Shown piece after piece: positions 42 through 63,682 of a stretch of 64,000 nucleotides of DNA. Each line of letters begins with the position of its first letter. Position 1 is the first letter of the stretch. Both the position numbers and the translations under genes were made by a program. This stretch comes from Octopus vulgaris (Eukaryota): the NCBI GenBank assembly GCA_951406725.2, contig OX597831.1, positions 60,884,001 to 60,948,000 on the forward strand. The letters are read 5' to 3'. The notes below the pieces were generated by a model. That model was not told the DNA's origin. It saw nothing but the letters and a program-made list of their open reading frames with translations, and searched no databases.

Positions 42-304
42 AAGTTATATGTATTTGTGAAGGGAACCAACTTCTCATCGACTACTATGATTGTCACACG
101 CCGATGACGGGTCAATACCCTGAAACTCGAGTCCGTGTGTATCATAAGTTGAAGACGGGAAGGATGGCTTTCCTTTGCGAATACTGATAGGGCACAGAAA
201 GTGTGTCTATAGCCAGATGGAGGAGGTGTCCTCCTGGGGCTACAAACTACAGTAGCATTCACCCTTAGGGGTTAGCCATATTCAAATGGCAAATATACGT
301 CACT
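42..304 (+). mobile_element. Short (TA)n-flanked element, probably a Penelope-like pLTR/retrozyme-like remnant
   Basis: GC-richer ~260 bp island between (TA)n tracts at 1-41 and 305-330; contains the hammerhead. Confidence 0.55.
86..146 (+). ncRNA. Minimal type I hammerhead ribozyme (CCGAUGA core variant) in a (TA)n-flanked element
   Basis: cacacg(95-100)-ccgatga-c-gggt/caat/accc-t-gaaa-ctcgag-tc-cgtgtg(134-139). Stem I, stem II, GAAA, palindromic stem III and a GUC cleavage triplet are present; stem I extends via tatgat(86-91)/atcata(141-146). Confidence 0.75.
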
Positions 305-1516
305 ATATATATATATATATATATATATATAGATAGATAGATAGATATAGATATATGTATGTATACATATATATGTGTGTATATATATATATATATGATT
401 ATTTATTTAGATGCGTATCAGATTAACACTGGAAACACATTCAAAAACAAGAGTAAGAGTGTAATATAAACGGTTTCTCGTCAGCCTGTATCATTACTAT
501 TAAAAATTTAATTCTAAAAATGAAATTGCTTTCCTTCTTTTTCGAACATTTAATTTTTGAAGAAAATTTTTGATGAAGTGTAGCCACATTGGTTTTCGGA
601 ATTGTGGGTCACCTCTTGAAATTTTGTAAACAGGAAAGATTTTGAACTTTCCTCCACCGCATGTTACTAGATGCCAGCTCACTGCAATCTTGCGAAATTC
701 CGCTTGTAGGATTTATCTATCTATTTATCTATCTATCTGTCAATGTATCTATCTAGTTATCTATATATCTACACATCACGCTGCCCCTTCCTACTTCCCT
801 TCCAAACCCACAACCGATTTTCTGCCCACCACTGGGTCGATTTCCTGTTCACTATGTTATTTGTTCCGATTAATTGTTGTCGATGAAATACCAATATCAA
901 ACTGTTACACCGCGTGACCTTTCTCGATCAATCGCAAAACACTCCTGTATATAACAATTGACTTTCTCCAACTGATCTCTTACTCAAATTTCCAATGGTT
1001 GCGCTTTGAAACTTTCCCCATCCTTTATTATTTTTCTCCTCTTTCTATTTGCCCCACTTTGCTTTTCGTCCTCTCTCTCTCTCCCCGCTTTACACAGAAA
1101 ACAACAACTATATTCTCCTCTTCCAAACAAAGCAAAATAGCATCCGATTCATAGGAATGAACAGCAAAACGTTCTCTTTCCACCATTTTAATTTTGATTT
1201 CGTCGTGATGAGTTCGATAAATGAAGGAAAGCGCTATTAAAGAATTATTCAAATTTCTGACTGCCTTTTACTCTCTATCTCTTTCTGTCTCTCTCTGTAT
1301 ATATATATATATATGTATATATATATATATACCTTTTAGGCTCAAAATTTTAAGGATAGTTTGGACGTTGATTCTCGAGAAATTGGCTACAAATTATGGT
1401 GTTTGTTGTGATTTTGTTAAATTTTATATAATCGTATATATACATATATACATACATTCGCACACACATAGACACACACACACACACACAGACGTCCATA
1501 TATACATATATATATG

Positions 1517-1644
1517 TACACGAGTGGTGTATGAAAAGTCTTGAGCTTCAAAAGAACGAAACATGGCACAAGACTTCTGATGAAGGTGAAAGACTTCAAC
1601 GATCAAATGCCTTGAAGGCTCAAAACTTTTCATACCACCGTGTA
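1517..1644. mobile_element. (TA)n-flanked fold-back element with hammerhead-like remnant
   Basis: Imperfect ~33 bp inverted arms (1517-1551 / 1612-1644); ctgatga at 1577-1583 in the spacer. Confidence 0.5.
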
Positions 1645-3544
1645 TATATATATATATATGTTAGAAAAAGGATTCAAAGAAAAAAGAATACGCGTGGTAT
1701 AATTAGGGAAAAATAAAAAGAAACAAATAAAATGCACACCAAGCATAAAAGTAATAACCTTTTTTACTTGTCCCTTATATATATATATATATATATATAT
1801 ATATCTCAAAATAAGCAACAAGGATATCCTTGTGGAATATTTTGATTATTTTGATTTTAATCACCTTATTTTGAAATTGTATGGATAATACCGCACCAAA
1901 TTCTGGTGCCTGAACTTTAGTACCATATTCATCTGAATATATATATATATATATATATATATATATACAGAGAGAGAAAGAGAGAGAGAGGGGGGAGGGG
2001 TAAGTATATAGGCAGAGAGAAAGAGAAGGACAGAGACAGACAGATAGATAGAAAATATCTCATAAATGCCTTAATGATGAAAATAATCTAAGTAGAATTT
2101 GAACTCAGTAACTGAATATTTCACGGAAATATATTGGCTAGTCAACTTCTAGGATATTTAATATAATTATTAGTAGTTATGGAACATCAAAACTGCCGTT
2201 GCTTGGACGGGCGGGGGATATGTTTTACTGACAATGCAATAGTAATTGGTAATTACCGCCAAGTTGTTCCTCCAATCTAAGTACAACTAGGACAGGAAAA
2301 TCAATGTTGTACGTGTGTGTGTGCCTATTGGATTATGAAGAAGTCATTTTGATTTAGGTGTGTATAGGTTTCTTTTAATGGATATTTATCTGTTAAGGAG
2401 TTTCGTATGTCGTACATAATGTGCTGAATTAGAGAAAACAATCGTATGTTTGAATTGGAAAGAAATCTACACAATAAACGTAGCTCTGAATTGATCTGTT
2501 CATACTTGAAATGAAATATCTAAATTCTAAATTCATTGAAGTTTATATTTAAATTTGTTTTCCTGTATTCTGCACCTAATCAACTCTGTACATAGGAATA
2601 CAGGACAGATGTTTAATGAAGATATCAGACTTTGAAATAGAGCGTATTCATTCCTTTGTTGTTGTTTCTTTCATCCATTCTTATTCCTATAGAATTTTAT
2701 TTACTTCTATACAAATTATATAATTTTCACTCTTGAATGTTCACTGCCAATAGAATGCCGTTCTAACCTATTGAAAATTCCTTCCTTATGATACTGATGA
2801 AATTAATTCACATCTAATCATTAAGTTGATGAACGATATAGATTTGAATATAATACAATAGTTTTGATGTGGTTGTTAGAACTTTTTAAAAAAACTTTCA
2901 TTTCATTATAATTTAAAATTCACCAAAGAGAACAGCACGATTGGTTAGTTTTGGAAATGTGATGTATCAGATCAAGAGGTCTACCTGTTAGAAAATATAT
3001 GATACTCTAGTTTTTGGCTTCCAGCATAATAATCTTTGTTCATGTATGAGCAGTGATTTAGCAGAGGCAGCGATTTCACGAACTGAATTCTTAATGTTAT
3101 TAAAGTATTTTAATGAAATGATAGAATGTTTCGGGTGCCAGAGAAGGAGCCTAGTTTTATATCTGTTGTATATTCCGGTTTTTAACATTCTATATTCACT
3201 TACCATCGATGTCAGCATTGCCTTTCGTATTATCGAGATACATCAAAATTGTACTGTCTGGGTGGGTTGGTCCGATCGAACAAATTCCAAAATATAATCG
3301 TCTCCACGCAAGTATTTTTTTTTATTTACCAACGCCTATTCCCCATAGGAGGGAGTATCCACAACAAAACACACACCGTGCATTCCATTCATTTACCAGC
3401 ACAAAGAGGCGAGCCCCATCGTGTCAAAGCATACAAAACAACCCCCGATATCAGCATCAGGTCCCAACAGCATATGCTGGTGTACCCTCGCCGCATCATA
3501 TGGCACCGTGCCCCTTTGAGCTATATCAATTAACTCATCGCTTC

Positions 3545-61865: not shown

Positions 61866-61905
61866 AAGAAATGACCGGTTTCGCGTTCAGCTTTTCAAAT
61901 TTCTT
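61866..61905 (-). ncRNA. Minimal hammerhead ribozyme, U3-A8 core variant, in a PLE 3' pLTR
   Basis: aagaaat-ttgaaaa-gc/tgaac/gc-gaaa-ccgg-tc-atttctt: 7-bp stem I, palindromic stem III, GUC site, ~100 nt downstream of the GIY-YIG ORF stop. Confidence 0.8.
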
Positions 61906-62007
61906 ACATCGTTATGTTTACGTTAAGAAGTGTGAAGGAGAGTGAAAGAGAGTTCCAGATAAGGGAATGTAATAAGTGATATCTTCCGGTGTAAGGGAGA
62001 TAATCGC

Positions 62008-62775
62008 TTAATATTTCTTGCTTTTCTTTTGGAGTGAGTTTCTCTGTATAAGAATGTTGGAATGGTTAAGTTTGGGCTTGTATTTTTCAATGAAGAATGT
62101 TTCCTTGTTTAGTCTAATTTGTGTTGGTGTTCCGATAGCACATTGGTAGAATGGAAAGATTAAAAATTGTGGTAGTAGTTGCTTTGCGCATTTCTCAATG
62201 TGCTCACTAAAGAGTATCATTCTGGGTTCTGGGAATGCAATATGTTGTCGATGCAGTGTGCATCTACGTCTGAGTGATAGTCCCGTGGATCCCACGTAGT
62301 CTTGGTGGCAGCCCGAGCATTTTATGACATAAATTATGTTTTCAGAAGCACAAGTAAAATTAGATTTGATCTTGAATTTATGTCCTTCTTTGAAGAGGAA
62401 TTCTGATCCTTCTAGCAGGTTTGGACATGTTGTACAGTTCGGTCTACCACATTTTTTTACTTTTGCATCCGTAATTTCAGAAAACAATTTTGCCTTTGTG
62501 AGAATCTTTTTATGTGATTTAGGTTGTTTGTAGCTTTTAATGATTTGGTGTATGTTTAGAATTTCCTTTAATTTGGGGTCCTTATGAAGTATTGGTAAAT
62601 TCTGGGTGATGATGGTGAAGGCTTTGTTTCTGGGGTTGTATGTGGATATGTAAAGTAGTATTTTCGGGGAAGGTGTATTGTTGTGTTGAACTTTTCTTAA
62701 AGTTTCTATGTTGATTTCTGTTGCACGTCTGATCCCATCCTCTATGAGTTGAGCTGGGTAATGTCTGTCACTTAG
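62008..62775 (-). mobile_element. 5'-truncated Penelope-like (Neptune-type) ORF: RT thumb end, Cys-rich linker and GIY-YIG endonuclease
   Basis: Uninterrupted frame: RHYP..LI, CGRPNCTTC, FTCASENIIYVIKCSGCHQDYVGST..RCTLH..EH..R..KE..I..PKLN. Confidence 0.9.
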
Positions 62776-63682
62776 GGTAAACACATAAATGTGAAACAAG
62801 GTGGAAAAAAGAGTACTCAAATACCAGTCGTAGAGTAATATGCTTTATTTAAAGCAGCAGAAAATTCAACAAATAAAGTATATATATATATATATATATA
62901 TATATTTATAAAATATAAATATATATATAGAAATATAAATATAAATATAAATATATTTATATATACAATATTGATATATATATATATGTATATATATATA
63001 TATACATGTCGATATGTGTGTGTATTTATGTTAAACATGTGTAAGTATATAGATACTTGAACATGACATTTGCGTACGTACACCACTCTCTATGTCTATA
63101 TGTGTCTTTATCCCCCCTCTCTCTCTATTTATTTTTATCTTTCTCTGCCCCTCTCACTATCACTCTCTTTCACTTTCCTCCTCTCTGTCTCAACGGTTCT
63201 CTCTAACAATAGTTTTCCCTATATCTCATAAATTCTGATTAACCTCAGCTCTCGGCTTTCTTCAAAATATTTTGTTTCAAAATATATATTTAATCTAACT
63301 ATTGAAACTAATGAGATTCTCTCTATTAGATCTATAATCTCTATTGGCAGTTCGTTACCTTCAGAAGTATCTCAAGCGATCCTCATTAAAAAATGTGACT
63401 GAAGCTGCATTTATATTAATTCAGTATGGACCGAAGCAATAGCTGTTAAAGAGTGGTTCACAACGTGTGTACGCCGTCGGGTCTATATCACTAAACAAAT
63501 AATAATCCATTTAAGAGAATGATGAGAAGCAGTAGTTAGAATAAAGATGTTGAAAAAGATAAAAGGTTAGTCTATTTGTTGAAAATATACAAATTATCAC
63601 CAAAAGTGGAATAACAATTTTCAGTTATTCATGTTTTCAAATATGTAGTCTAATATCCGATGATGGTTAATCATCTATGTTC

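Follow-up and report, generated by a model that had tools for sequence, protein, structure and literature searches.

Hammerhead motifs at the 3′ ends of nine Octopus vulgaris repeat families, five of them joined to Penelope-like coding sequence

Among Penelope-like elements (PLEs), the Hydra elements, Hydra-1_Obim included, have been reported to carry hammerhead ribozymes, to prefer (TA)n targets and to leave inverted copies with one-sided tails (Craig et al. 2021, PMC8557442). A purified PLE from Anolis was described as cutting and extending both strands, with reverse transcription starting at two internal sites that define the tail; the same element was predicted to dimerise, and hammerhead cleavage was not needed in vitro (PMC11167929). 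Here we examine a 64,000-nt stretch of the Octopus vulgaris genome (contig OX597831.1, positions 60,884,001 to 60,948,000; hereafter the window) in which ten sites bear a type I hammerhead motif or part of one. We consider it very likely that these ten motifs mark the 3′ ends of nine repeat families, PLE coding sequence being attached to five, and that all nine were probably inserted by Penelope-type enzymes through target-primed reverse transcription, mostly at TA repeats. The kind of element is already known; it is unusually dense here.

Hammerhead sites, families and folds

A sequence-only reading had placed hammerhead cores, or bare 3′ halves made of GAAA, a palindrome and UH, at ten coordinates in the window, and the motif or half described is present at all ten. 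The islands are multi-copy, as that reading required, since a first look at the 2.8-Gb genome assembly returned 642-3,283 candidates per query (201 for the short E query). The ten sites fall into nine multi-copy families, named A to H with D split into D1 and D2; 40 candidates were scored per query out of these first-look totals, and the loci analysed are the top-scoring copies of each family. The features of the window are as follows.

46-302 (+): family A, 5′-truncated copy of a closed 350-351-nt tandem unit without an open reading frame (ORF), retrozyme-like, between (TA)n arrays; other copies are 95-98% identical
95-139 (+): family A type I hammerhead, U4C core, intact relative to the family
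30211-30427 (-): family B 3′ end; family sequence extends ~220 nt further 5′; ORF not found; Hydra-like stem III
30316-30376 (-): family B hammerhead, A9G in the window copy
35968-36538 (+): family C, C terminus of a GIY-YIG endonuclease, Hydra-type (CxxC..E..N..CxH) and frameshifted, followed by 3′ untranslated region (UTR)
36490-36537 (+): family C hammerhead, damaged, in the 3′ UTR
37250-37453 (-): family D1, truncated copy of an ORF-less unit of ~570 nt
37421-37440 (-): family D1 hammerhead 3′ half (U3-A8), all that remains of the motif
37464-37531: (TA)34 array, flank common to D1 and D2
37532-37653 (-): family D2 arm 1, 3′ pseudo-long terminal repeat (pLTR); the PLE is Hydra-type and very young, and the truncation falls within the long stem II
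37591-37616 (-): family D2 hammerhead 3′ half, in arm 1
37654-37842 (+): family D2 arm 2, inverted copy that continues through the tail, which is the 5′ UTR of the element, as far as a second fixed end at (TA)n
42483-42780 (both arms): family E, two-armed inverted insertion
42581-42617 (minus arm): family E hammerhead, minimal, U3-A8; deleted on the plus arm
50618-51030 (both arms): family F, Hydra-type PLE represented by two 3′ pLTR arms in inverted orientation
50656-50733 (-, A6U) and 50859-50931 (+, 3′ stem I lost): family F hammerheads with long stem II
51208-51432 (-): family G, 3′ pLTR; the PLE is Neptune-type and a relative of H
51258-51293 (-): family G hammerhead, damaged, U3-A8
61735-62844 (-): family H, 5′-truncated Neptune-type PLE with thumb end, Cx4Cx2C linker and GIY-YIG (frame 62008-62844), then 3′ UTR
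61866-61905 (-): family H hammerhead, intact, U3-A8, in the 3′ UTR
1-42, 304-396, 30134-30184, 37843-37894, 50521-50622, 51126-51206, 51433-51472, 61695-61734 and 62879-63004: other flanking TA arrays

Within the window the motif is full in three of ten copies, reduced to a 3′ half in two and damaged in five, and only A, H and the left arm of E match the full motif of their own family. The D1 and D2 copies have lost their 5′ ends, with the break inside stem II, while the damage consists of A9G in B, a stem II deletion in C, A6U in the first F arm, loss of the 3′ strand of stem I in the second, and changes at A9 and U16.1 in G; most window copies are dead. The islands had been called mini-elements of unrelated families. 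C and H, however, are the ends of coding fragments within the window. Between the islands, blastn finds no similarity beyond one 23-nt B-E match (E 0.025); G and H, however, are related, with endonucleases 52% identical and hammerheads near-identical.

The motifs exceed dinucleotide-shuffled sequence, as had been anticipated: the full type I descriptor matched the window four times, compared with a mean of 0.05 (maximum 1) in 20 local shuffles, a count that is partly circular because this relaxed descriptor was tuned on these same families. A first, untuned descriptor gave 1-3 window matches against 0-0.1 in shuffles, and a strict CUGANGA descriptor gave none. There were 48 rows of bare 3′ halves (GAAA-palindrome-UH) in the window; 40 shuffles gave 20.4 +/- 4.8, and named sites account for only 6 of the 48. 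Since they are common in shuffles and the other 42 rows lie outside the named sites, they are weak evidence when taken alone; many are TATA/ATAT loops, and we dropped them. In an Rfam scan of the window, no hammerhead family was among the 150 matches listed of 208; those listed are microsatellite-driven and miRNA-type.

In every family, the majority of copies fits a type I hammerhead, with the core, stems I-III, the UH site and a palindromic stem III. Family A has a CCGAUGA core (U4C) in 20 of 21 correctly parsed rows and U4 in none, together with C/U at the base of stem II and a 6-nt palindromic loop III; U4C is a known variant, reported to lower activity in vitro (PMC3088659). The core is CUGAAGA in B (13/14), D2 (10/11) and F (15/17), a mixture of CUGANGA and UUGANAA in C, and the U3-A8 covariant, described for minimal PLE hammerheads (PMC4209133), in G, H, E and D1. 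These counts leave out pattern mis-matches (3 rows in A, 1 in F, 2 in D1). The stem II region is long (51-55 nt) in D2 (55 nt) and F (51 nt), whereas stem II is 2 bp in H and closed by A-U in G; pairs other than G-C stand at its base in A, D1 and F, and stem I has 3 bp in E. In 7 of 7 cases tested, two co-folded copies gained 1.8-12.3 kcal/mol in stability over the separate monomers, which is weak evidence because palindromes predict it anyway. As modelled, the hammerheads would cleave, best as dimers through the palindromic stem III, and may be dispensable for insertion.

To gauge the genome-wide load, we applied the relaxed type I descriptor to 59 evenly spaced 10-kb stretches (589,900 nt, 0.02% of the genome), which held 29 full motifs in 17 stretches, against 1, 0, 2, 0 and 0 in five shuffles. 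This density of ~50 per Mb extrapolates to ~138,000 motifs (71,000-223,000, bootstrap over stretches), and (TA)5 lay within 260 nt of 14 of the 29, compared with 19% of positions. Most of the 29 represent further families beyond the nine. Eleven loci of this 590-kb sample hold no fewer than eight additional hammerhead families, among them two in which the U4C core recurs and two whose stem II is long. Quoted figures for minimal motifs are about 2,000-9,000 per genome (PMC4209133), and reported hammerhead counts reach 120,000 in axolotl and exceed 6,000 in a coral (PMC7229834). The sequence-only reading thus did well in proposing a large and diverse PLE/ribozyme population, with type I palindromic-stem hammerheads and a strong (TA)n bias. 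Its expectation that this population would be masked as simple repeat is not supported: TRF arrays cover just 0-12 nt per island, and a published Octopus vulgaris annotation reports 31 recently active PLE families (PMC13282606). The words ‘ribozyme’ and ‘retrozyme’ occur nowhere in that annotation paper.

Coding and ORF-less families

The islands do not form one new system; five of the nine families are ordinary 3′ pLTRs of coding PLEs, three Hydra-type (C, D2, F) and two Neptune-type (G, H). PLE coding sequence lies upstream of the hammerhead in all five; a single ORF with reverse transcriptase (RT) and, at its C terminus, a GIY-YIG endonuclease (EN) is seen in D2 and H, and partly in F, C and G. 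The D2 pLTR occurs at 40 places with 100% identity over 122 nt, and 899-codon open frames are found at 20 of 150 scored RT matches. D2 copies follow one another head to tail in units of 3,624 nt; each junction holds one hammerhead, the tail runs into the start codon, and the window pLTR shares 97.5% identity with these full copies. The D2 protein has RW(L), DKT, YRDD and CxxC..E..N..CxH, without CCHH; homologues are 36-42% identical. The CxCX5C linker is missing in D2 and in a fragment at 41269-41832, and is kept in F and in the homologues P0002 and P0003; on these motifs D2 is filed as Hydra-like and F as Hydra, with the Hydra marks in F and C compared at the C-terminal motifs only. The fragment at 41269-41832 (-) is a further Hydra-like endonuclease piece, 49% identical to D2 and lacking the linker finger, with no hammerhead downstream to 40700.

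In family F, a Hydra-type RT-EN ORF with CxCX5C lies ~2 kb upstream of the hammerhead end in two loci (L143 and L144) and is reached only across 2 kb of low-complexity UTR. At one of these (L144/L234, C4:98.46 Mb), an F element with a 6-kb inverted structure adjoins a frameshifted D2 element, so that different PLE families are stacked at one TA site, like D1/D2 and F/G in the window. [quoted passage not shown] The Neptune/Nematis marks (DKG, a CX2-5CxxC linker and CCHH in the EN) are all found in H, while G is placed by its 52% EN identity only; of the 14 G loci, 1 has a Neptune-type endonuclease upstream. A further repeat end (62780-62878) lies between H and the array at 62879, and its sequence also follows F in another locus (L030), where by eye it runs into an opposite-strand hammerhead with a CCGACGA (U4C) core.

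Of the remaining families, A and D1 form closed, retrozyme-like units that lack an ORF, and none turned up in B and E. Family A has a period of 350-351 nt, the sequence upstream of its hammerhead being the downstream tail, and two same-strand near-full copies, possibly consecutive units, lie 351 nt apart (C3:94503163 and C3:94503515); the D1 unit closes at ~570 nt in one locus. A young ORF-less array (L175, C1:20.0 Mb, 2000-4800) consists of 5 direct and 2 inverted units of 353-359 nt, each with a canonical hammerhead and consecutive units with complete ones, and has TA at both array ends; a 36-nt junction motif is common to L175 and family A. Family A sequence was present in contigs of 4 of 4 runs guessed to be RNA, and these contigs show neither ends nor strand. 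PLE fragments in 3 of 25 A flanks lie beyond the TA arrays or on the other strand. We also observed that several otherwise dissimilar repeats (in L146, L154, L171, L177, L194, L215, L233, L234) contain a 60-nt motif of the D1 short 3′ end, which is possibly a common recognition site for one mobilising enzyme.

Insertion footprint and its explanation

Insertion junctions were scored in 132 copies, after dropping the 10 window copies, 5 duplicate loci, long re-fetches and the first E locus set, the last because its query was itself inverted. The 3′ end adjoins (TA)4 or more in 86 of them, compared with 1,224 of 87,105 background positions (1.4%), and a control short interspersed element (SINE) had TA at only 1 and 3 of 103 ends. 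By family the counts are 21/24 in A, 17/17 in F, 11/14 in B, 8/14 in C, 9/11 in H, 7/11 in G, 4/11 in D1 and 6/11 in D2; the D2 figure comes from an over-short reference and rises to 31/32 with a full-length one and 20 more loci, window copy included. The islands had been described as mostly (TA)n-flanked, which the overall bias bears out, but E is not TA-flanked in the window and only rarely elsewhere (3/19). In E, target duplications of 10-16 nt are found, at least 11 nt long in 13 of 16 insertions compared with 7.5% of 240 mismatched pairs.

The anatomy is that of PLEs with an endonuclease, with a pLTR derived from a partial tandem, an inverted 5′-truncated copy and a tail at one end. An inverted arm is present in 67 of the 132 copies, and in none of the 11 from G. 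Two recurring 3′ ends, 35-157 nt apart, are found in seven families; the second end of B is seen in 2 copies only, and G has a single end. In 73 inverted insertions (window copies included), the two arms stop at different fixed ends in 67, at the same end in 2 and elsewhere in 4. As the family F query was itself inverted and thus biased, we also counted without F, which leaves 54 different, 1 same and 3 other (n = 58; 1/55 against 0.5, p about 3e-15); the E and B queries fixed one arm at the long end, and all loci are top-scoring copies. The pattern holds across Hydra-type, Neptune-type and ORF-less families.

In the insertion model that we propose, the two strands of an AT/TA target are nicked with a stagger by the GIY-YIG domain. 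From each nick, reverse transcription would begin at one of two sites inside the RNA, both downstream of the hammerhead; a short cDNA joined to the target would leave a truncated island, and a head-to-head pair of cDNAs an inverted one, with one arm per start site. A and D1 would borrow PLE enzymes as retrozymes, and the hammerheads would likely process tandem transcripts as dimers, with cleavage predicted. Whether one enzyme dimer acting on one RNA, two nicked strands and two fixed sites is a general rule for Hydra-type, Neptune-type and retrozyme insertions, with TA targeting that dispenses with the linker zinc finger, we regard as evenly balanced. Targeting of (TA)n may not need the linker finger that has been proposed to confer it, because linker-less D2, with many intact ORFs and probably still active, inserts at TA in 31 of 32 cases.

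Several observations weigh against this account. No autonomous partner of A, B, D1 or E was found in ORF lists or by tblastn over their loci, none for B or D1 in 10-kb extensions (two for B, one for D1), and none when 268 loci were compared with the A, D1 and L175 units by relaxed blastn; because no ORF or partner was found, the PLE link of these four families rests on footprint and motif, and that of G to PLE coding sequence on one locus. Pfam gave nothing useful on the window fragments and Hydra-type ORFs, and because it finds nothing in Hydra-type proteins, clades were assigned from motifs and by-eye comparison with a published alignment rather than from a tree. Minimum free energy folds of B, D2 and H monomers do not exactly reproduce the hammerhead. 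TA adjacency is not PLE-specific here, because another abundant repeat also adjoins TA (34/139 to 68/133 matches). Young and long copies are over-represented, because the loci are the top-scoring ones, and the anole PLE was reported to show no strand difference in start site in vitro (PMC11167929).

The most serious competing possibility, to which we give appreciable though lesser weight, is that A, D1, B and E are leftover pLTRs from autonomous PLEs, the coding copies having escaped our sampling, and not independent retrozymes. Most PLE copies are short 3′ stubs, and the ORF of F lay beyond 2 kb of low-complexity UTR; B has similar low-complexity sequence upstream together with a Hydra-type stem III. 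In A, however, the tail closes a 350-351-nt unit, whereas that of D2 enters an ORF, the related L175 forms a 5+2-unit array without an ORF, and D1 closes at ~570 nt in one locus. Such an origin is likely for B, possible for E and unlikely for A. Somewhat less probable, and in our view unlikely, is that the motifs are inactive, or serve only in protein binding or structure, so that self-cleavage is irrelevant to their spread. In young families variant cores do prevail, with U4C in A, pairs other than G-C at the stem II base in A, D1 and F, and a 3-bp stem I in E; PLE hammerheads were reported to cleave poorly in vitro (PMC4209133), U4C is among the variants with lowered activity in vitro (PMC3088659), and the anole PLE could do without cleavage (PMC11167929). 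This sits uneasily with the recurrence of the fold in sequence-unrelated families, with compensating C3-G8/U3-A8 swaps and stems that are changed but still paired; the co-folding preference points the same way, weakly, as palindromes would be expected to show it.

That the TA arrays were made or expanded by the insertions, or that both gather in the same regions, is improbable. Several 3′ ends do finish in TA-like letters, E enters ordinary AT-rich DNA and other repeats adjoin TA, but TA stands at both outer ends of inverted insertions (12 of 13 in D2, 10 of 13 in A) and on the 5′ side of several simple truncated copies, the control SINE lacks it at nearly all ends, and a (TA)n preference has been published for Hydra and Naiad (PMC8557442). 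Least credible of all, and barely worth entertaining, is that AT-rich DNA matches the motif by chance and that the inverted islands are miniature inverted-repeat transposable elements (MITEs). It draws on the frequency of bare 3′ halves in shuffles (20.4 per window) and on E, which looks like a MITE when taken by itself. Full motifs, however, number 29 in the sample against 0-2 in its shuffles, and for the named sites chance is ruled out by the shuffle counts and the family-majority folds; E has unequal arms, variable internal junctions and 10-16-nt duplications, on which grounds we rejected the MITE reading of E.

Elsewhere in the window, a near-perfect 96-nt hairpin (27833-27928) lies between TA arrays, has a few matches in other loci and is possibly another two-armed stub. 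A non-LTR retrotransposon C-terminus fragment (31044-31620, +) resembles by eye a 434-aa frame in another locus (L150). The frames 46390-47062 and 57965-58303 resemble remnants of mariner-type transposases.

Relation to described systems

These results touch on PLE integration, the role of the hammerhead and the mobilisation of animal retrozymes by PLEs, since coding and ORF-less elements give matched insertion footprints in one genome. The arm-pairing rule and the linker-less TA targeting are the parts most worth experiment, and D2 offers an intact young autonomous element for in vitro study of strand-coupled starts and of TA recognition without the linker finger. A genome with on the order of 100,000 hammerheads would be a ready test bed for both; the load and the family-wide core variants widen the descriptors needed for counting ribozymes in animal genomes. 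Our literature search, which left subscription papers largely outside, turned up neither an octopus hammerhead census nor an arm-pairing rule.

As described for the Hydra clade (PMC8557442), C, D2 and F have a single RT-EN ORF, DKT, no CCHH, and CxxC and CxH around E and N, together with a canonical type I hammerhead, (TA)n insertion, partial tandems, an inverted 5′-truncated copy and a tail at one end. D2 differs from the published elements in its length (895 aa, 3.6-kb unit), two low-complexity inserts, a 55-nt stem II region, RWL in place of RWK and the absence of CxCX5C despite its TA targeting, and F in its 2-kb 3′ UTR and 51-nt stem II region; tails here are 35-157 nt long, compared with 30-40 in the Hydra elements reported there. 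G and H share with Neptune-type PLEs from the same report DKG, a Cx4Cx2C linker, a C-terminal GIY-YIG with internal CxxC and two His, a microsatellite bias and a hammerhead in the 3′ pLTR, but have a U3-A8 core and a stem II that is 2-bp (H) or A-U-closed (G), and may belong to either Neptune or Nematis.

The minimal PLE hammerheads of Cervera and De la Pena (2014, PMC4209133) are likewise type I, with palindromic 15.2-16.2 and loop 3, the U3-A8 covariant and an extra nucleotide after A9, and are mostly single and dispersed, with some opposite-strand pairs 100-700 bp apart. Unlike them, several families here are without the G10.1-C11.1 pair, whose conservation that study described as high; U4C extends across the whole of family A and is found in other sample families, and the estimated load is ~140,000 rather than 2,000-9,000. 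A, D1 and L175 resemble the non-LTR retrozymes of animals (Cervera and de la Pena 2020, PMC7229834; Li et al. 2026, 10.64898/2026.07.22.740005) in being ORF-less, with one type I hammerhead per unit and monomers to multimers, and in a proposed PLE origin and mobilisation; the units of A and L175 are 350-360 nt. They differ in the ~570 nt of D1 and in copies that are mostly of 1-2 units with PLE-type fixed ends, inversions and TA junctions. Finally, the Poseidon PLE of Anolis (PAc; Frangieh et al. 2024, PMC11167929) shares two internal RT start sites, cutting and extension of both strands and AT-rich targets; in contrast to PAc in vitro, where no strand difference was reported, the two arms of one genomic insertion here use different sites.

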